Shown piece by piece: positions 1,420 to 51,061 of a stretch of DNA of 64,000 nucleotides (position 1 is its first letter; every line of letters starts with the position of its first letter). Below the pieces are notes generated by a model that was not told where the DNA came from, did not search any database, and was given only the letters and a program-made list of their open reading frames with translations. The DNA is from a virus. A program made the position numbers and the translations under genes. The DNA is taken from the IMG/VR virus record IMGVR_UViG_3300010354_000044, positions 64,001 to 128,000 of that record; one strand, given 5' to 3'.

Positions 1420-4400
1420 GCTATTTTGACCATTCTTACCGTTACCGCTACTATCTCAGCCTCCGCCCCTGGGGCTAAGCCCAAAGCGCGTAAGCGCCCC
1501 AACCGTGCTGCACAAAAAGCACAGCAACGCAGGGCCGCATTCTTACGTCGTAAGCGGCAGTCCCGTAATGGGCGCCGCCCATTCCATGGGGTGCGGTATT
1601 GTAATATTGCTGATAGGCCCAAGGCCCGTCAGCAGAAGTTTTGGGCCCGTGCCCGTAAGCTGGGAGTTGCCAGGGAGGTAGCCCACCTCCTATGGATGGG
1701 CGACGACTTAGGCGCCAGGCGCGTCCTTAAGGAGGCCCGGCGGCGCTACCAAGTAAAGCGTAGCCTTGTGCTGCGCACCCCGGTTGATAGCCGGGGGGAC
1801 GAAGCTTTACAGGCCAGGCCCAGTCTAAAACCCTCCACCGGGAGGGTATTTGAGAGGGGCACTAAAGGGAAACCCCCACGTAACTGGGGGTTGACGAAAA
1901 AGTCCCAGCCAGAGCCTAGCTGGCGGGACTTCCTTGTTAAGGCTAGGGAGGTTCACCGGGACATCCTAGCTGACCTGGTTAGGGTCGTGGGTGGGGAGCC
2001 TACAGACACCGTTGTCTGTATGGCCCAAACCCCTCCTCCCCCTTCCCCCCAAGGGCGGCAGTCTACCCTCCAAAGGGTAAATGGGCTAGGGCTACCGTTT
2101 GAGCTGTCGGAGGACCAGCTCACCGCCCTAGACAAGATGCTGGCGTTCGCAGAGAGCCCGGCCCGTGGAGGTACCTTTACCTTAGAAGGGTACGCGGGTA
2201 CAGGTAAGACTACTTTGCTACCTATTTTCCTACGGTTACTGCCAAGGAATATCCGGGCGGCTACCGCAGTAACCGCGCTCAGTAACAAGGCGGCGCGTGT
2301 ACTGTCTGAGAAGCTACGGGGCCAAGGTTTACGTGTAGAGGCTTCTACCATTCACAAGCTTCTAGGTATTAAGGCTATCAAACAGAATGCAGAGATTCAG
2401 TTTGATAGGGGAGGGAGCTGCACTATCAGCGAAAACTTGCTCGTTATCGTAGACGAGGCGTCTATGCTGGGCGAGGTCTTATGGAACCATATGACTTCCT
2501 ACTTCAAGAGCATTAAGTTCTTATTTACAGGCGACCCAGCTCAGTTACCGCCTGTTAACGAAACTGGGGCTCCGTGTTTTAGCTTGGCTGATGACTATGC
2601 CAAGTTGACTAAGGTCCTTCGGCATGGCGGTCCAGTTCTACGTGAGTCAACGCTAGTCCGTGACCTGGGGCATGGTACTTACCACCCGGCTCAGTCGCTG
2701 AGTGAAGGTAATAACGTCTTCTGTTATCAGCACATTAACTGGTTTAAGGTCATTAGTGGGTTGGTAAGTGACCCTGAGAAGTGGGCCAAATTTACCGATG
2801 ATCCTAACTTCTTTAGGATTGTGGCCTGGCGTAACGCTAGGGTTGCTGAGCTAAATACCTATGTCCGCCAACTATTGCACGTAGGGAAAAAGCTGGAGCG
2901 TTTCATGGTGGGGGACCTTGTCATATTAGACGCCCCGTATGAAGACCTCTTTACAGGGGATGAGTTTTGGGTACGTGCTGTAAATAATGGCAAGGTTGAT
3001 GGCTGGAATTGCCTGGAGATTACCTTGGAACCGGTGCATGATGCAAAGGCTGAAACTATAGTACGAGTGCTTGCTGCGGAGGAAGCAAGCCGGTACAAGC
3101 AAGAGTCAGACCGGTTACGTGAACTGGCAACACAGCATGTTATTCCTTGGGCGGAGTACTGGGCGTTGCAAGAATTATTCGCAGGGCTCAGTTATGGCTA
3201 TGCTATGACAGTCCACAAGTCTCAAGGGTCTACGTTTCGTAACGTTCTGGTGGACTATAGCGACATCAAGTTATGTAGGGGTCTTGAGCTTAATAAGCTT
3301 ATCTACGTAGCTATAAGTCGTGCGTCTAAGAACGTCATTATGAACGTAGGCACGAGTCCCATTTATGAGCGGGTGAAACCTGCCGGGGAAATTGATACAG
3401 GACCGCCGGAAATACCAGAACCCCCGGTGGTGAATGCCCAGGAGCCTGTGGTAGAGGAGGCCCCGCCTACCTTGCCAGAGGAAGAGTCTGTTGCTGAGGT
3501 AGGCGCGAGCGTCTCTATTGCTGTTGCTCCACAAGAGCCGGCAGTAGAGGAAACTCAGGCTGCGCCTATTAACACAGGGCAGCCTGTGACGGAAACAACC
3601 ACGAAGGAGGAAACTATGTGGTTTGTAGAGATTGACGTAGCGGAACTCACGTTCTTTGCTACAAAGACCAATCATGCGGGTACATTCCCCGTCAACGGTC
3701 TAGAAGTCTTTAAGAAGGGCTTGCTAGGCAAGGGGTATAAGCTTGTGGAAACGCAAGTAGGCCCCGAAGGGGAGGAGCTTAAGCTCGTCTACGCTAAGCA
3801 GCCGCCTACGGCGCTTGGTGGAGAACGAGCCCCGGCTGACCCGCCTGACCAGCCGTTTGCTTCTGGCAACGTAGCCCAGTTCAAGCAGACGGTGCTGAAC
3901 TTTATTGCTCAGCGACTCGGGAAGCTGCACCAGCAGTATCCCGAGTCTGGTATGCGGGAGTTGATCGTCCGCATGACAGAGGCGATTAACTACAGCCCGC
4001 GGGATGCCTTCTTCGCCGCTCCGCTCAGTGACATGCTAAGTATGTGGGTATTTGAGGCGACCCACTCTAAGGAGCTTGGTAACCGGCCTATTCCGGTTAT
4101 TGAGAAGGAGGCTTACTACCTCTCTGGTAAGTGCCTCACTGGGCGCCCGTCGCTGATCGGAGACTTGGACCTTCTGTTGAGCCGCCAACGGCTTGACATT
4201 GAAGGCGATAGTTACCGCCTGCGGTATCCCATTGAGCAGGTAGAGGCGGCGATACTGGACGCTGAGGGCCGGGATCTCTATGAGGGTTACCGGGTTATCC
4301 TCAGCGAGGGTATCAAAAGCCACGCTGTCCTCAATGGTAACTTCCCCCACCTAGGGGTTGAAGTTGAGGATATGGCGGCAGCGCTGACTGTCCACCAGCT

Positions 4401-30003: not shown

Positions 30004-30074
30004 GAGACATTAGCTTAATGGTAAAGCACGGGGCTTTTAACCTCTTGATGAAAGTTCGATTCTTTCATGTCTCA
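30004..30074 (+). tRNA. trnK: tRNA-Lys(UUU), no encoded CCA
   Basis: GAGACAT/ATGTCTC acceptor stem, loop CTTTTAA, T-loop GTTCGATTC. Confidence 0.88.
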
Positions 30075-39533: not shown

Positions 39534-39869
39534 ATGGTTAAAATTACGTTGCAGCAGAATTTAGAAATGATTAAGAAAATCAGAGAATTGATAACTGGGC
39601 GCAGCGCCCTTGAAAGAGTCGTAACAGCAATTGACAGATTAGTTAGTGACTCAATGCTTGCCGGTAATTATGATCGCATACAAACTGGCGTACCCGAGGT
39701 TGCCAAAGGGCTAGATGCTGAGGATTACTCGTTGCTGTTGCGTGTCCTTAAGTATAAAATCCAAAGAGATAAAGCTCCAGCAGCTGCGCCCTTTTATGAA
39801 GAAGCACTTAAGTGCGCTATTGCATCCCGCCTTGATTATTTTGTTCTAGAGGATAGAGCTAATGGTTGA
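39534..39869 (+). CDS. Hypothetical protein
   Basis: Coupled to next gene. Confidence 0.65.
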   Translation: MVKITLQQNLEMIKKIRELITGRSALERVVTAIDRLVSDSMLAGNYDRIQTGVPEVAKGLDAEDYSLLLRVLKYKIQRDKAPAAAPFYEEALKCAIASRLDYFVLEDRANG

Positions 39870-40887
39870 CTCCCAACAAAATGATAGTCGGTATCCGTAT
39901 ACCTACGCTTGGGACTACTTACGCGGTATCTGCGAAGGGAGTGTGTCAAGATCGGACGTCGCTAAAATAATGGAATTCTTAAGCGAGCTCTTGGGGAATG
40001 CCCTAAATCTCTCACCCAGCGAATTAGCTGAAGAGCTGGCAATTAAGATAGCTGACTATGCGCAGGCAAATCCTCATGACCCGCAAGTACTCGTAGACAA
40101 TGCTTCGCGGCGCCTCAATAAACCCACGATTACTGAAAAGGCCGATTCTATACAACCGGTGCCTGAAGTAATCACCATTAACCTACCAGGCGGGGTAGAG
40201 TTGGAAATGGTCGCTATTCCAGAAGGGAGTTTTCTCATGGGCTCCCCTGATGATGAACTAGGGCGTAGTAAAGACGAAGGTCCGCAGCATCAGGTGACTA
40301 TAGCTACCTTCCTAATGGGTAAATACCCTGTTACGCAGGCGCAGTGGCGTGCGGTAGCCGATCTGCCCCAGGTGGAATATTATCTGAATCCAGAGCCATC
40401 AAATTTTAAGGACGATAAATGCCCAGTTGAACAAATTACCTGGCATGAAGCTTTGGAATTTTGTGCTCGGTTATCCAAACTAACCGGTAAACCCTACACC
40501 CTCCCCAGTGAAGCCCAGTGGGAGTATGCTTGCCGGGCCGGTACCGCTACCCCATTTTACTTTGGCGAGACCCTTACCACTGACCTAGCTAATTACGATG
40601 GTGATTACATCTATGAACTCACCGAGGTGGGTAGTTTTCCTCCCAATGCCTTTGGCCTTTACGATATGCACGGCAATGTGTTTGAGTGGTGTTTAGATGT
40701 ATGGCATGAAACTTATGACGGTGCCCCGGTTGACGGAACTGCTTGGGTGACAGACGGGGACAGTTCCATTCGTGTACATCGTGGCGGTTCTTGGGACGAC
40801 GAACCTGGGAACTGTCGCTCCGCCTATCGGAGCAACGACTGGTCCTACAGCCGTGAGGCTTTTACCGGCTTTCGTATTGTGGTGTAA
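39862..40887 (+). CDS. FGE-sulfatase domain protein 3 with extra ~100-aa N-terminal domain
   Basis: FGE motifs in the C-terminal 240 aa. Confidence 0.92.
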   Translation: MVDSQQNDSRYPYTYAWDYLRGICEGSVSRSDVAKIMEFLSELLGNALNLSPSELAEELAIKIADYAQANPHDPQVLVDNASRRLNKPTITEKADSIQPVPEVITINLPGGVELEMVAIPEGSFLMGSPDDELGRSKDEGPQHQVTIATFLMGKYPVTQAQWRAVADLPQVEYYLNPEPSNFKDDKCPVEQITWHEALEFCARLSKLTGKPYTLPSEAQWEYACRAGTATPFYFGETLTTDLANYDGDYIYELTEVGSFPPNAFGLYDMHGNVFEWCLDVWHETYDGAPVDGTAWVTDGDSSIRVHRGGSWDDEPGNCRSAYRSNDWSYSREAFTGFRIVV

Positions 40888-41219: not shown

Positions 41220-41993
41220 ATGGCTGAGGTAACTACAATTACCCTGCCTGGAAGGGTAGAGTTAAAAATGGTAGCTATTCCAGAAGGGAGCTTTCCCATG
41301 GGCTCCCCTGCAGATAACATTGGGTTTTACTATAACGAGGGGCCACAGCATCAAGTAACACTGAATTCTTTCCTCATGGGTAAATACCCAATTACCCAGG
41401 CTCAATGGCGGGCTGTAGCGACCTTACCAGAGATTGAGATTAGTCTAGACCCCGATCCTTCAGCCTTCAAGGGGGATAACCGCCCCGTAGAGCAGGTGAA
41501 CTGGCATGAAGCCTTAGAGTTCTGCTACAGACTGTCTACCTATACTGGTACTGTTTATACTTTACCTAGCGAGGCTCAGTGGGAGTATGCCTGCCGTGCT
41601 GGTACTACTACGGCGTTTCATTTCGGCGAGACAATTTCTACCAACCAAGCTAACTACAACGGTAGTTATATTTACGCTAATGGCCACAAAGGAGTCTGGC
41701 GGGAGGAGACGACTGAGGTGGGCATGTTTCCTGCAAACGCCTTTGGTCTCCATGACATGCACGGTAATGTGTACGAGTGGTGTTTAGATAACTATGAGAT
41801 CAGCTACCGAGGCGCTCCAACCGATGGAAGCGCCTGGAAGCGTAAGAAGAGCCCATGGGAGATTCGCCATATACTCCGTGGAGGCTCTTGGGTTGATGGC
41901 CCTTGGTATTGCCGTAGTGCCCAGCGAGGATTCCTTAAAGAGTTTGTTTCAGATAGTTATATTGGCTTTCGTGTTGTATGTCTGCTGAAGTAG
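41220..41993 (+). CDS. FGE-sulfatase domain protein 4
   Basis: FGE motifs. Confidence 0.92.
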   Translation: MAEVTTITLPGRVELKMVAIPEGSFPMGSPADNIGFYYNEGPQHQVTLNSFLMGKYPITQAQWRAVATLPEIEISLDPDPSAFKGDNRPVEQVNWHEALEFCYRLSTYTGTVYTLPSEAQWEYACRAGTTTAFHFGETISTNQANYNGSYIYANGHKGVWREETTEVGMFPANAFGLHDMHGNVYEWCLDNYEISYRGAPTDGSAWKRKKSPWEIRHILRGGSWVDGPWYCRSAQRGFLKEFVSDSYIGFRVVCLLK

Positions 41994-45296: not shown

Positions 45297-45371
45297 TACT
45301 TTAAGACATCATGTTCAAAAAGCTAATCATACTTATTCTCCTGTTCATCGCCCTTTTAACAGACACTTCCA

Positions 45372-45710
45372 ATGGAAAATAATGAAAGCGTGGTAGAGCT
45401 AATGGAAATATACGGGGGCTTGTCCAAGCTGCGACCGATTCTTAAAGACGTTCCGCCTGAAAAGTGGGAAGGTCTGATAGAAGCAGCCCGGTATACAATA
45501 GAACTTCGCAAAGAGCTAGAAGAAAGTTCCATTCCTCATGAGGAATGGGGAGGCGCTATAGAGGCTTGCAAGATCCTTCTAGATCTAAAACGTTCTTACA
45601 AGGGCGGAAGTCTAGTTGAGGCCCTTAGCCGTAATCGCAGCCGGATAGCTAACTTAGATACACAATACCAAGCTTGGCTTCTAAGAAACGTTACTATGCT
45701 GATTGATTGA
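45372..45710 (+). CDS. Hypothetical protein with internal W.G.IEA repeat
   Basis: PPEKWEGLIEA / PHEEWGGAIEA. Confidence 0.65.
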   Translation: MENNESVVELMEIYGGLSKLRPILKDVPPEKWEGLIEAARYTIELRKELEESSIPHEEWGGAIEACKILLDLKRSYKGGSLVEALSRNRSRIANLDTQYQAWLLRNVTMLID

Positions 45711-45823
45711 GCTCAATCGTTTTCAGAAGTTAATTGTAGGAGAATCAATTTAAAAGTTTTAAAGAATAGTTGTCTTTTTTAACTTACGTGTGTTAAGGTA
45801 GAAAGACCTTACTCTAGATAGCC

Positions 45824-46956
45824 GTGTACAAACAAAAACGTAAGCCCAAGAAGAGAGAAGTTGGTCGGCACAGCCCCGGCGCTCAGTCTCGGCTGGATAA
45901 GTTTGTACAGACCCATAGAGCAGAGAAGGAAGCTAATCCTCTGCCCTTGGATTTCTACCGCCCTATTTATCTCCCCAATAACTTCTGGGAGACTCTACGC
46001 AGCTACGGCAATCTGTACGTGTACGCACGTATGCTAGATAAAAAGGGCGCAGGGGTTGTTACCTTTAATACGGACTTTGCAGCGGGCGAGCTCTACATGA
46101 TGCCCCGGACGTGCAAAGATTATATCCGCACCTGCCTGCGGAAAGGTTTGTTTAGGCATATAGAGTGGTTAGACAAAACGACCGTCAAGGTCTATTACAA
46201 CTCTATGCCTAAGCTAATGTTGGGCTTAGAAGCAGAGTCCAACACTGAGATTCTCTTGGAGAGTCCGGAGGACATCCTGAGAAAAAAGTCCTGATTCCTG
46301 AGGATAGTGTCCTCAGGAAGCAGGAACAGAGTCAGTTTCGCGCTCAGCAGGAGCTGCGCACTAAGCTGCAGCAAAAGCTGAAAGACGAACTAAACGTAAG
46401 AAAGTTAGGTGCTGAAGGAGAAGAGCATGTAGAAAAAGAGTTTAAGGACCAAATGCTCACGCTTGCCGACTTCTTTAGAAAACCCTCTGTTAATGCCGGG
46501 GGCACTGTTTTGAAGAGGAAAAGTAAACGCCGAAAACGGCGGAATAAAGCTCTTATTTATCGCGGCAAGCGGTTCACGTTGGCGCATCCAGACGCCCCTC
46601 TGTTTGGAGCTACCCAGAAGGCGATCGGCTTAGAGATAGGCCGGGCCCGCAAGACTGTATCCCGACGGCTATCTAATAGCTATCGGGAGAAAGTGGCAAA
46701 GAAATATAAGATCACTATCAAACCCCTTCAGCGCACCCAGGTGTTAATCCATTTGGGTGATGCCGCTGCTGCAGAACAGGCCCAGCGAGAGTCGCTTGAG
46801 CGCCTCCCGATTGCGGTCTACAACGATAAATCTTATATTTGCCGGCCTAACGTCTACAAGGGGACAGCAGAGACACCAAGAAGCCAACGGCGGGTGCGTC
46901 AGCACCTTCGCCAACTTGAAGCTAAGCTACAAAAGCGTAGCTCCGATGATGCTTGA
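45824..46956 (+). CDS. Basic HTH DNA-binding (possibly replication-initiator) protein made by programmed -1 frameshift; ~377-aa fusion and 156-aa short form
   Basis: A AAA AAG at 46282-46288; -1 frame open 46249-46956; HTH ATQKAIGLEIGRARKTVSRRL. Confidence 0.75.
46267..46319 (+). promoter_or_regulatory. dnaX-type -1 ribosomal frameshift signal
   Basis: GGAGG - 10 nt - AAAAAAG - 6 nt - TTCCTGAGGA/TCCTCAGGAA 10-bp stem. Confidence 0.85.
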
Positions 46957-47014
46957 TTTTATCAAGCGTTGCTTCTTGGGTTTGGTTGCTTCAACACTAG
47001 CGCCCCTCCGCTAG

Positions 47015-47340
47015 GTTGTAGCAGCGAAGCGAAAAATTTATTGAAATAATATTTTCTTCGCTTCGCTGCTGGATTTTCAGCTCCGCCAGTTTTTTTTGGT
47101 GAGCTGCCCCGTGAAAAATTTTTTTATTATTTTTTTTTTGCGGGGCATGAAAGGGGGGTTATTCTTACACAAGGAAAAAGCTAGGGTATCCTTAGCTTGA
47201 TTTTTAGTGTAAAGTTATTTTTTATATTAATTTCGGGAATTAAGGGATTAAAGTTAAACCTATAGTTTTTGATAGGGGCTGCGCCCCTATCTTTTTTTTT
47301 GATTAACTTTCTAAATGTCCTTTAGAAGTTTGTATGGGTA
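47015..47340. other. AT-rich non-coding region with three GC-clamped inverted repeats; candidate replication origin
   Basis: Inverted repeats at 47020-47070, 47105-47147, 47271-47291; long T/A runs. Confidence 0.45.
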
Positions 47341-47354
47341 CAAACTGAATCAAC

Positions 47355-47753
47355 ATGTTCTATTCCTTTGAGTTATTCGGACCGCGCTTGCGCGCGTACG
47401 AGCAGAAATTAGCTGAGCTATCGCTGTATGACCCCCCAAGCCCCCCTTCCCCCCAAACCTCGGCAGAAGGACTTAGCGATACATCGCCCTTCCAGGAGGC
47501 TATTGATGCAGGATTAGCTATGCTAGACTGTATAAAACCAGCATCTACCGAAACCTACGGCCAACACTTTCTAAGCGTTGTCAAGCTAATAGTAAGAGCG
47601 CAGCAATACCCGCTGGCTTTACAACTCATTACAGATTACCGTTGCCCCGCTAAGTACATCTCGGGCGAACTAAAGACTTTAAAGGAAGCTATCAACACAT
47701 GTCTTACTTCACCGGCTACAGACAACGACTGCAGCTCAACCATCAGAACTTAG
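47355..47753 (+). CDS. Hypothetical protein
   Basis: ORF. Confidence 0.6.
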   Translation: MFYSFELFGPRLRAYEQKLAELSLYDPPSPPSPQTSAEGLSDTSPFQEAIDAGLAMLDCIKPASTETYGQHFLSVVKLIVRAQQYPLALQLITDYRCPAKYISGELKTLKEAINTCLTSPATDNDCSSTIRT

Positions 47754-48838: not shown

Positions 48839-48865
48839 TTGTCTAAACCCTACCCCAAGGAAAAT

Positions 48866-51061
48866 ATGGCTACCATCAACCTGCTACCTAATTACCTTTA
48901 CCTCGCGTCAGGGCCCTCGGCGTCGGGTAAGAGCACAGCACTTAAGGGCCTGCCTGCAGGGGTAGTGGTGTCCTCAGACAGCTTGAGAACCCAAATATTC
49001 GGTCTTGAAGCTGATACTGTAGAGGGTAACCTACTAGCCCCTCCTAGCCTAAGACCCCGCCCTGTCAACGATAGCTTTATCTTTGACACCATGAGACAGA
49101 TCGTGGAGGCCCGTCTTAAAGCAGGACTGACAACAGTCGTAGACGCAACTTTGTTAACCGACCGTGACCGCAAGCAGTTCGTGGATATAGCTGCTAGCTA
49201 CAACGTCCCTGTTCAGATTTTGATCTGGGATGTTCCCGCCGAGCAGCTGACTACTAGAGATGCAGATCGTCAGTTCCGGGTAGGGGCTGAGGTTATCCAG
49301 CGACAACTGGAGCGCTTTGAGCGTACATCCCAGTACTCCTATATTGTAGACGACTACTTTGAGCTTGAAATAGCTCACCTAACAGTAGCTAGTAGCGTAG
49401 AACTGGATTTCGTGGGTGACATCCACGGCTGCTACGACCAGTTAATAGAACTGATTGAAAAGCTAGGCTATGTTATTGGCGAGGACGGTATTGCTAGGTA
49501 TGCTGGTAATGAGCCCCGGCGTCTGTGCTTTTTGGGCGACTATGTAGACCGAGGGCCCAAGTCCTTAGAGGTACTCAAATTCATTTACCGGAATACGCCT
49601 ACGCATTGGGCGTTGCTGGGGAACCATGATAGTAACCTTCTCAAGGGGTTGCTAGGAAAACCCGTAACCTCCAAGGCCACACAGGAGACCCTCCATGAAG
49701 TGATGGTCGCCAAGGCGGAGAAGTGGGTTACAGAGCTACTGACCTCACTGCCTCGTTATCTAACCTGGCGGAATGTCGTTATTTGCCATGCCGACATCCA
49801 GAGGCTTAACTTACCTCAGGAGACAACTCAGTGCGTTTACGGTTGTAGTAAACTGAACAGGCCTATAAACGCCGATGAAATCTGGAGTAAGACTGAGAAG
49901 CGCCTGCTTATCCGCGGTCACTTTACTCCTGACCACGAGTACGATAACGTCATTACCCTGGACGGTAATCCGGGCTATGGCGGTACTATTAAAGCAGGGC
50001 GTTTTGCTGTTGCTCAAGTTGCGGGTCGGAAGCATGATAACTTCTTAATCCAGCAATGGATTGAATTCTCATTAGGGCCTACGGAAGATTATGAAGAACG
50101 CAAGAAGACTGTAATAGGTTTTCGCCTTGCCGCTATGCCAAAAGAGTTGGTTAGCACGGCTACATCGCCTTGCGGCCACCTCAAGCTGTTTAAATACACG
50201 CCTAATGCCTTTAGACAGTCCTTTAAATCTGAAGGGCCTTGGCTGGAGTACCCTGACCTTAAGTACGCCCGAGGCCTTGTCGTAGGCCTTAACCACCAAC
50301 CGGTGAACACGGTCTTTCCTAAAATTCCTAGTTACACCGAAGGAATTGATCCGAGCAAGCAGGTGATTGCCGCGACAAAGTTGAACGGCTTTCTCCTAGC
50401 TACATTCAGACATCCTTACAAAGAGGATGTGGTCTTCACTACTACCGGGTCGTTTGACTCTGAGTACGTAAAGATGGGCCGTGCATTGTTCTACAAGCAC
50501 GCAAAACAGTCTCGGCAGCAGCTCCTAAACAGCCCGGGATTGACATTCTTGTGGGAGGTTATAGACCCTAATAAAGACCAAAATGTCCACCCTATTGCCT
50601 CGTCCGCAGGCATCTACCTAATTGCTGTAGGGCAAAATGGGGTAATCCTCCCCGAGGAGGAGATGCAAAGCTACGCCGGCAACTTGAATGTCAACTGTGC
50701 CAGTCATGTACAGACTGACTTCGGGTCAGTCCTAGAAATGGCCCGCACCAGCGACGGCGAGGGCTATATGATTAGGGACTTGGAAGGTAACTACCTTGCA
50801 AAGCTCAAATCACCGTTTTACCTGACTGTCAAGAAGTTTATGCGTCTATCGCCAAAGGCGGGCGCACAGCTCTTTAACGACCCTATTAATTTCAACTTTG
50901 AGTATATTTGGCAGCAGTGCATGGACAACCCTTATGCCAACGACCTTTATACCCGGCAGACAGCTATCGCCGAAGCTATCCGAACACACTTTTCCTGTGA
51001 AACTTGGCAACAAGCAGATAGTTTAACCCGTAGAGAATTTCTCTATCGCATGTTAAGCTAA
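48866..51061 (+). CDS. Polynucleotide kinase-phosphatase-ligase (Pnkp-like RNA repair enzyme)
   Basis: GPSASGKST..VSSD..VDAT kinase; GDIHG, GDYVDRG, LGNHD metallophosphoesterase; KLNG, WEVI, EGY, KLK ligase motifs. Confidence 0.88.
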   Translation: MATINLLPNYLYLASGPSASGKSTALKGLPAGVVVSSDSLRTQIFGLEADTVEGNLLAPPSLRPRPVNDSFIFDTMRQIVEARLKAGLTTVVDATLLTDRDRKQFVDIAASYNVPVQILIWDVPAEQLTTRDADRQFRVGAEVIQRQLERFERTSQYSYIVDDYFELEIAHLTVASSVELDFVGDIHGCYDQLIELIEKLGYVIGEDGIARYAGNEPRRLCFLGDYVDRGPKSLEVLKFIYRNTPTHWALLGNHDSNLLKGLLGKPVTSKATQETLHEVMVAKAEKWVTELLTSLPRYLTWRNVVICHADIQRLNLPQETTQCVYGCSKLNRPINADEIWSKTEKRLLIRGHFTPDHEYDNVITLDGNPGYGGTIKAGRFAVAQVAGRKHDNFLIQQWIEFSLGPTEDYEERKKTVIGFRLAAMPKELVSTATSPCGHLKLFKYTPNAFRQSFKSEGPWLEYPDLKYARGLVVGLNHQPVNTVFPKIPSYTEGIDPSKQVIAATKLNGFLLATFRHPYKEDVVFTTTGSFDSEYVKMGRALFYKHAKQSRQQLLNSPGLTFLWEVIDPNKDQNVHPIASSAGIYLIAVGQNGVILPEEEMQSYAGNLNVNCASHVQTDFGSVLEMARTSDGEGYMIRDLEGNYLAKLKSPFYLTVKKFMRLSPKAGAQLFNDPINFNFEYIWQQCMDNPYANDLYTRQTAIAEAIRTHFSCETWQQADSLTRREFLYRMLS

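Follow-up and report, generated by a model that had tools for sequence, protein, structure and literature searches.

We identify a gene of an uncultured phage that probably encodes a 377-aa DNA-binding protein through a programmed −1 ribosomal frameshift (PRF) of the type known from dnaX and from the IS3 insertion sequences (IS). The gene lies in a 64,000-nt stretch (bases 64001-128000 of the 171,984-bp IMG/VR virus contig IMGVR_UViG_3300010354_000044; hereafter, the window), where gene callers report two separate open reading frames (ORFs): ORF1 (45824..46294; 156 aa) and “ORF2” (46453..46956; 167 aa), both on the plus strand, as are all the features of the gene described below. An earlier note on this DNA had read 46249-46330 as a complete dnaX/IS3-type signal that joins the two ORFs into a protein with two helix-turn-helix (HTH) domains. 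From the sequence comparisons presented here, we put the probability that the 377-aa protein is expressed in this way at roughly 0.8. The mechanism is a known one; the instance is new, and it is found in an undescribed family of two-HTH proteins of large uncultured phages. Among prokaryotes, few gene classes are known in which −1 PRF involves all three dnaX-type stimulators.

ORF1, the source of the zero-frame product, starts with GTG, two codons past an in-frame TAG, and encodes a basic N-terminal tail followed by winged-helix domain 1, ending in ...ILRKKS*. Its 3' end reads AGA AAA AAG TCC TGA, so that the slippery heptamer A_AAA_AAG (46282..46288) is in the X_XXY_YYZ phase and lies one codon ahead of the zero-frame stop (46292..46294), which is TGA in the window and TAA in the related contigs L002 and L003 introduced below. 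An internal Shine-Dalgarno (SD)-like GGAGG (46267..46271) is located 10 nt 5' of the heptamer, and a stem-loop (46289..46325) is located on the 3' side. The inner stem of this structure (46295-46304/46310-46319) is a perfect 10-bp helix that begins 6 nt past the heptamer and closes a 5-nt loop, and the outer stem (46289-46293/46321-46325) contributes 5 bp beginning directly after the heptamer. The folding energy calculated with RNAfold is −16.1 kcal/mol for the inner stem and −24.7 kcal/mol with the outer stem included; the z-score of the stem-loop is about −5.5, and equally good folds were obtained in 0 of 200 shuffles.

In the −1 frame, a TGA at 46246-46248 is followed by an open stretch that extends across 46249-46956 and provides 222 codons after the shift. 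The first 55 of these (46288..46452) form a linker without a canonical start, predicted to fold into a long helix from the junction onward, and no ATG, GTG, or TTG is present in the −1 frame ahead of 46453. The remaining codons correspond to ORF2, which would be the C-terminal part of the fusion and consists of a basic disordered insertion and the second HTH domain. The predicted fusion amounts to 155 + 222 = 377 aa, with the junction ...ILRKK-VLIPEDSVLR; the junction-spanning peptide of the fusion reads ...ILRKKVLIPEDSVLR, and the trans-frame peptide of the window at the junction is DILRKK followed by VLIPEDSVLRKQEQSQ. This anatomy fits the known rules exactly. The earlier note had placed the heptamer in frame one codon before the TGA, and this placement proved exact to the base; the positions it gave for the GGAGG and the hairpin, and its reading of the −1 frame as open from 46249 into the second ORF, were verified as well.

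Other explanations for individual elements of the site were ruled out. There is no T-run behind the hairpin, which excludes a terminator, and reading of the TGA as a sense codon under an alternative code is excluded by the TAA that relatives carry at this position and by the lack of a suppressor tRNA in the genome. A search against Rfam gave no match to the DnaX or IS frameshift elements, and the signal is therefore considered analogous to that of dnaX, not homologous to it.

The evidence that we regard as decisive comes from sequence comparison with distant homologues, each of which is a single ORF that is colinear first with ORF1 and, past a junction on the slippery Lys-Lys, with the −1 frame. 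A phmmer search with ORF1 as the query against 1.84 billion cluster representatives yielded nine proteins, six of which (P0005-P0009 and P0012) are single-ORF homologues of 282-334 aa, with 29-47% identity over the matched stretch. ORF1 residues ~50-138 match the N-termini of these homologues with E values of 1e-10 to 3e-16, and the continuation of the homologues matches the −1 frame product through to the C-terminus. Specifically, ORF1 70-155 aligns to residues 1-85 of P0007, and the −1 product from its first Lys aligns to P0007 from Lys85 onward (E 1e-23); for the ORF2 part, BLASTP E values are 7e-19 to P0006 and 1e-23 to P0007. The join falls at the Lys-Lys, where the window has ILRKK followed by VLIPEDSVLRKQEQS and the homologue has HLKFKKAIIPEAIVKAKQQQS; across the homologues, the junction reads DLKHKKVAIALAGAQHKQDQS, DLKFKKAIIVEAAIASKQAQS, HLKFKKAIIPEAIVKAKQQQS, and SLRQKKTVIPEAFLAHRQKQAQ. 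The linker aligns to a helix of the homologues, and the ATG at 46453, the start assigned to ORF2, aligns to an internal Met or Val.

The DNA of the homologues, which represents five distinct genes at six loci (L004-L009), provides a view of the site prior to the split. Each of these genes runs in one frame, and the codons at the site are CAG AAG AAG, TTC AAG AAG, CAT AAA AAG, CAC AAG AAA, and TTC AAA AAG. None of the six loci contains A_AAA_AAG, an SD (Pro-Glu-(Asp/His) being encoded there by CCA GAG CAT or CCT GAA GAC), or a strong hairpin past the Lys-Lys, which implies that all three elements arose in the clade of the window. The GGAGG of the window stems from CCG GAG GAC, the codons for the ancestral Pro-Glu-Asp, and the entire cassette appears to have been built by synonymous or conservative changes over the ancestral PED-L-K-x-K-K-(V/A)-I-I-P-E. 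Removal of one G from ...AAA AAG GTC CTG ATT... produces the present ...AAA AAG TCC TGA TT..., and we infer that a G was lost in this way, in which case the −1 product would be identical to the presumed ancestral protein. The contig of one unshifted homologue (L008) gave no support for synteny with the window, and a tblastn search with the homologue P0008 against plasmids and phages gave no match.

Another member of the family, on an 88-kb phage-like contig (L010, JGI 3300071355; positions 3001-3886), is split too, elsewhere in the linker and in the other direction. Here, TGA TAA closes a 146-aa ORF, and the region for the C-terminal HTH domain proceeds in the +1 frame. This frame is already open ~20 codons before the two stops, and it lacks a canonical start ahead of the conserved KP...L...F motif. 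No recognisable +1 shift site was seen in L010, and the arrangement may reflect a second case of recoding, a split that is tolerated, or an error.

The close relatives of the window form a single 90%-identity cluster, for which DNA was obtained from four contigs: L002 (a Logan contig, SRR22077879), L003 (JGI 3300042380), L014 (NCBI GCA_043536685.1, identical to L003), and L013 (a 151-kb ENA contig, ERZ27275033). Together with the window, these represent three haplotypes (window and L013; L002; L003 and L014) that come from IMG/VR, ENA, Logan, and JGI/NCBI. Over the 1133 nt compared, L013 matches the window at every position, L003 differs from it at 45 positions, and L002 differs by ~10%, so that the haplotypes span a range of 4-10%. 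Gene callers find two ORFs in every assembly, including the 20.6-kb JGI/NCBI contig, which likewise has 156 + 167 aa according to its gene calls. The GGAGG, AGAAAAAAG, the TCC plus stop, and an identical inner hairpin are kept in all three haplotypes, and the outer stem has one pair fewer in L002 and L003. Between the window and L002, there is 1 change in the 86 nt of 46263-46348, compared with ~6% in ORF1. Through this sole change, 46293 G>A, the frame-0 stop becomes TAA in place of TGA, and the frame −1 codon CTG becomes CTA, with Leu kept; it is the sort of change that a dual-frame constraint permits; the exchange of TGA and TAA also argues against a recoded stop. Conservation in homologues, to which the earlier note had looked, holds for these three close haplotypes and stops short of the distant single-ORF homologues, from which the cassette is absent. 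Beyond the cluster, blastn of the region against phages gave no match, ORF1-based and alignment-based searches of viral and genome contigs found no related loci, and a scan of metagenome and viral contigs for the cassette pattern gave 0 matches, with records close to the window possibly outside the scan.

Selection on the linker was assessed from dN/dS ratios calculated by the Nei-Gojobori method among the three haplotypes. Divergence across 46350-46449 is ~24%, comparable to the 26-35% of the flanking intergenic DNA, and the −1 frame of this segment contains no indel and no stop in the three haplotypes. The dN/dS ratio is 0.07-0.12 for ORF1 and 0.36 for ORF2, both of which are under purifying selection. 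In the linker, the ratio is 0.24-0.29 in the −1 frame, 0.4-0.8 in frame 0, and 0.5-1.6 in frame +1, and the deficit of non-synonymous changes is significant in the −1 frame (binomial p = 0.006) and not in the other frames. The linker thus evolves under purifying selection in the −1 frame only and, given that it lacks a canonical start, its translation would be best explained by ribosomes coming from ORF1.

Chance is a poor explanation for the co-occurrence of these elements. AAAAAAG is present 33 times on both strands of the 172-kb genome, with 6 occurrences in frame within ORFs of at least 60 aa, and only one of these 6, at 46282-46288, has a perfect hairpin of at least 6 bp located 0-11 nt downstream. 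The genome also contains ~16 distinct perfect 10-bp hairpins and 375 GGAGG motifs. Based on these genome-wide counts of heptamers, 10-bp hairpins, and GGAGG, the expected chance co-occurrence at the right spacings is ~1e-4 or fewer per genome, before requiring the right frames.

Under the mechanism that we propose, ribosomes translating ORF1 would arrive at A_AAA_AAG, with the anti-SD of the 16S rRNA pairing with the GGAGG 10 nt behind and the 10-11-bp hairpin 6 nt ahead blocking the mRNA entrance. A fraction of the ribosomes would then slip the tRNA-Lys one base back (AAA-AAG to AAA-AAA) and read the −1 frame to 46956, yielding the full-length protein, and the remaining ribosomes would read TCC and stop at TGA, yielding the 156-aa protein that consists of the basic tail and the first winged helix only. 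The shift is presumably ribosomal and efficient, and both products are presumably used, perhaps in the fixed ratio that the earlier note had proposed; by analogy with the IS proteins OrfA/OrfAB, the short winged-helix-only form may modulate the full-length form.

As the earlier note had stated, the phage encodes a tRNA-Lys(UUU) (30004..30074, plus strand), which reads both AAA and AAG of the slippery site. Participation of this tRNA in the shift is a matter of speculation, and codon supply alone would explain the phage tRNAs for A-ending codons. A further, rather improbable scenario casts the shift as a timer: in a host with both tRNA-Lys species, the phage tRNA-Lys(UUU) would, in the course of infection, alter the UUU:CUU balance, raise slippage, and thereby switch production from a short repressor or competitor to the full-length origin-binding initiator, and the split in L010 would meet the need for a separate N-terminal domain in a second way. 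If this were true, recoding that gates the replication of the phage would be under the control of one of its own tRNA genes.

Several observations weigh against a frameshift. Openness of the linker is weak evidence on its own, because 27% of simulated linkers stay open (a chance probability of 0.27), and the cassette is confined to one narrow clade (the single 90% cluster, with a synonymous divergence of ~0.1-0.5), so that its conservation is shallow. An SD precedes 24% of the ORF starts genome-wide, against a background of 10%, which is a modest usage, and the contribution of the SD and the tRNA-Lys set available would depend on the host. Furthermore, the 167-aa product may initiate independently at ATG 46453, which is conserved across the haplotypes and is preceded, in the window and L003, by a weak AAGGA 4 nt upstream. 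Initiation there would suit a split gene with negligible shifting, in which a 1-nt deletion left the two halves either separate, with ORF2 translated from ATG 46453, or with the downstream half dying, the cassette being fortuitous. The two ORFs called in every assembly agree with this explanation, as does L010, where the linker is likewise interrupted and no shift site is recognisable, suggesting that a split at the domain boundary may be tolerated. We nevertheless consider a split gene unlikely. It would leave without a reason 55 start-less codons that align to the homologues and are under purifying selection in the −1 frame; ATG 46453 corresponds to an internal Met or Val of the homologues, and the AAGGA is lost in L002; and the three stimulators, brought to canonical spacings by clade-specific synonymous choices, would have to be a coincidence with a chance of ~1e-4. 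A dead split gene is likewise unlikely.

The same full-length product could also be obtained without any ribosomal shift, if RNA polymerase added one A to the A6 run: the resulting A7 transcripts would encode ...RKKVLIPE... in one frame, a product that, directly from the sequence, is identical to that of −1 PRF. Productive slippage of bacterial polymerases is known from longer runs, of ~9 or more, whereas the run here is only 6 A, and transcriptional slippage leaves unexplained the conservation of two ribosome-specific stimulators, the SD (at 10 nt) and the hairpin (at 6 nt); we therefore regard it as highly improbable. An error in sequencing or assembly, with a true sequence of A7 or an extra G and a single ORF, would be in line with the single-ORF homologues and with homopolymer indels being a common artefact. 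However, the same A6G is present in at least 4 separate assemblies from different data sets and assemblers, and in three haplotypes, which excludes a homopolymer sequencing error, and the zero-frame stop remains a stop (TGA or TAA) across the haplotypes. The extra A that the earlier note had named as a potential refutation is thus not borne out by these assemblies, and the likelihood of an error is negligible. The preferred interpretation remains a programmed −1 frameshift that joins the two ORFs, as supported by the colinear single-ORF homologues, the conservation among haplotypes, and the selection on the linker.

Structural models predict that the protein has a winged helix at its N-terminal side and a second HTH domain at its C-terminal side, with a long helix between them. 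In the AlphaFold2 model of the homologue P0008, built from a 16-sequence alignment (pLDDT 88.1, pTM 0.84), residues 7-93 fold as a winged helix and are followed by a short strand; residues 105-139 form a long helix that opens with the Lys-Lys, and residues 167-290 make up a second domain, which contains an HTH. In the model of the −1 product of the window (pLDDT 79), a helix starts at the junction, and the chain also includes a helical insertion specific to the clade, a basic insertion that is disordered (KRKSKRRKRRNK), and the HTH domain, with the HTH helices at model residues 111-141. According to these models, the junction coincides with a domain boundary: the first winged helix lies before it, and the long helix starts there. 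Across the family, Pfam matches were obtained to HTH_23 (12/16 members), HTH_24 and HTH_29 (10/16), and HTH_36 (PF13730; 9/16, best E 3e-6), with HTH families found in both halves of most members. The two-HTH architecture suggested in the earlier note is thus supported by the homologue model (pLDDT 88) and by the Pfam matches in both halves. For the window's own halves, searches of Pfam, PHROGs, and NCBIfam gave nothing significant, the Pfam matches being sub-threshold (HTH_Crp_2 at E 0.02-0.04), and a PDB sequence profile search found nothing. Relative to all single-ORF homologues, the clade of the window carries two insertions: one of ~22 aa in the helical linker (within 46375-46440), and the basic one, of ~14 aa and predicted to be disordered (within 46495-46536).

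In fold comparisons, the N-terminal domain matches winged helices in general (Z 8-9.5), and the top rows of the Foldseek search were the iteron-binding initiators RepE54, Rep, and Pi, with E values of 0.02-0.15 only; Pi was the sole chain aligned over the whole model (Z 6.9, 174 residues, rmsd 5.1). The best shape match in the ESM Atlas was a cyanobacterial Prim-Pol protein cluster (TM 0.68 over 250 residues), followed by clusters with HTH_36 and with DUF7833 + DnaA_N. For the C-terminal model, no credible match emerged from fold searches, and an ESM Atlas feature search with the C-terminal part gave nothing. Searches of Pfam, NCBIfam, and the PDB profiles yielded no match to a Rep family, including Rep_3, and no iterons or other convincing repeats were found at 45300-47400. 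In the absence of a Rep signature, iterons, and plasmid or phage relatives, the protein was not placed in any named family; our best guess, from the models, the fold matches, and the gene neighbourhoods together, is a replication-initiator or origin-binding role. Members of the family head operons, and one of them (L011) is encoded near a RecD2-like helicase and a PD-(D/E)XK nuclease, and another (L005) near Xis/Cro-like HTH genes and IS elements. No transposase (DDE/RNase H) domain above the cut-off was detected in either frame or in any family member, and no tail chaperone domain was found; together with the non-structural gene neighbourhood in the window, this agrees with the statement of the earlier note that the gene is neither a tail chaperone nor a transposase.

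The 171,984-bp contig has a CheckV completeness of 87% and a GC content of 45.6%. Five phage tRNAs are encoded at 30004-56350 (Lys-UUU, Met-CAU, Arg-UCU, Thr-UGU, and Pro-UGG), and all of them read A-ending codons or ATG, which suggests codon supplementation for a host with another codon bias. A 740-aa protein encoded at 48839-51061 contains polynucleotide-kinase-like AAA_33 and metallophosphatase domains and an RNA-ligase-like C-terminus (PHROG RNA ligase/Pnkp-like), and looks like an RNA repair enzyme in this phage with five tRNA genes. Adjacent paralogues at 39862-40887 and 41220-41993 each contain an FGE-sulfatase (formylglycine-generating enzyme-like) domain and carry the PHROG label “kinase.” The gap of ~400 nt 3' of the putative frameshifted gene (46957-47354) is highly structured and diverges sharply between the haplotypes; at 47020-47070 it contains an inverted repeat of 23 nt, and at 47178 and 47271 there are terminator-like hairpins, each followed by a T-run.

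The persistence of the unshifted ancestral state in relatives makes visible the assembly of the cassette by synonymous changes around an apparent single-base deletion and thus provides a clean natural example of how recoding arises, which could also serve as a ready-made reporter system. The annotation can be corrected accordingly, such that the “156-aa” and “167-aa” hypothetical proteins of several metagenome assemblies would represent one gene. In addition, the comparison defines a metagenome-only two-HTH family, the members of which may be replication initiators of large phages or mobile elements, possibly cyanobacterial.

Among the known systems, the signal can be compared with Escherichia coli dnaX (tau/gamma), with which it shares A_AAA_AAG, an SD-like element ~10 nt 5', a simple stem-loop ~6 nt 3', and two products with a common N-terminus. 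The gene and protein are unrelated to dnaX, and the shift gives the short product in dnaX and the long product here. SD elements that stimulate −1 shifts do so from a distance of 9-14 nt on the 5' side; they feature prominently in dnaX and in an estimated 56% of IS elements (PMC5009743). Of the heptamers tested in E. coli, A_AAA_AAG shifts most readily, and the tRNA-Lys complement of about half of known bacteria consists of a single species (PMC5009743). In the “reversed” dnaX of some bacteria, the long product results from the shift and the zero-frame stop lies directly past the site (PMC5009743), which is the arrangement proposed for the window.

The tail assembly chaperones G/GT of phages also depend on a conserved −1 PRF that sets the ratio of the short and long products. 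Those genes sit between the tail tube and tape-measure genes and have a structural role, and nearly all annotated phage PRFs are of this tail type (PMC10885494), whereas the gene described here is predicted to encode a DNA-binding protein and has a non-structural setting. The similarity to the initiators RepE, Pi, and RepA, which have two winged helices, and to Prim-Pol-linked initiators consists in the two DNA-binding domains and weak fold matches; unlike in RepE, Pi, and RepA, there is no Rep_3 Pfam match here, and no iterons are located near the gene. For plasmid pIGRK, two Rep isoforms with antagonistic roles are described (PMC6854812); these originate from in-frame starts, in contrast to the frameshift proposed here.

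The best functional analogy appears to be with the OrfA/OrfAB (InsA/InsAB') proteins of IS3/IS911 and IS1, which are produced by −1 PRF, often on A_AAA_AAG, with an SD and a 3' structure. In those elements, too, the upstream-frame product is a lone HTH DNA-binding domain and the fusion is the full protein. The gene of the window differs in that it has no DDE transposase domain and no terminal inverted repeats, its C-terminal part is a second HTH, and it resides in a phage operon. The short form acts as a regulator of the long one in both IS911 and IS1.

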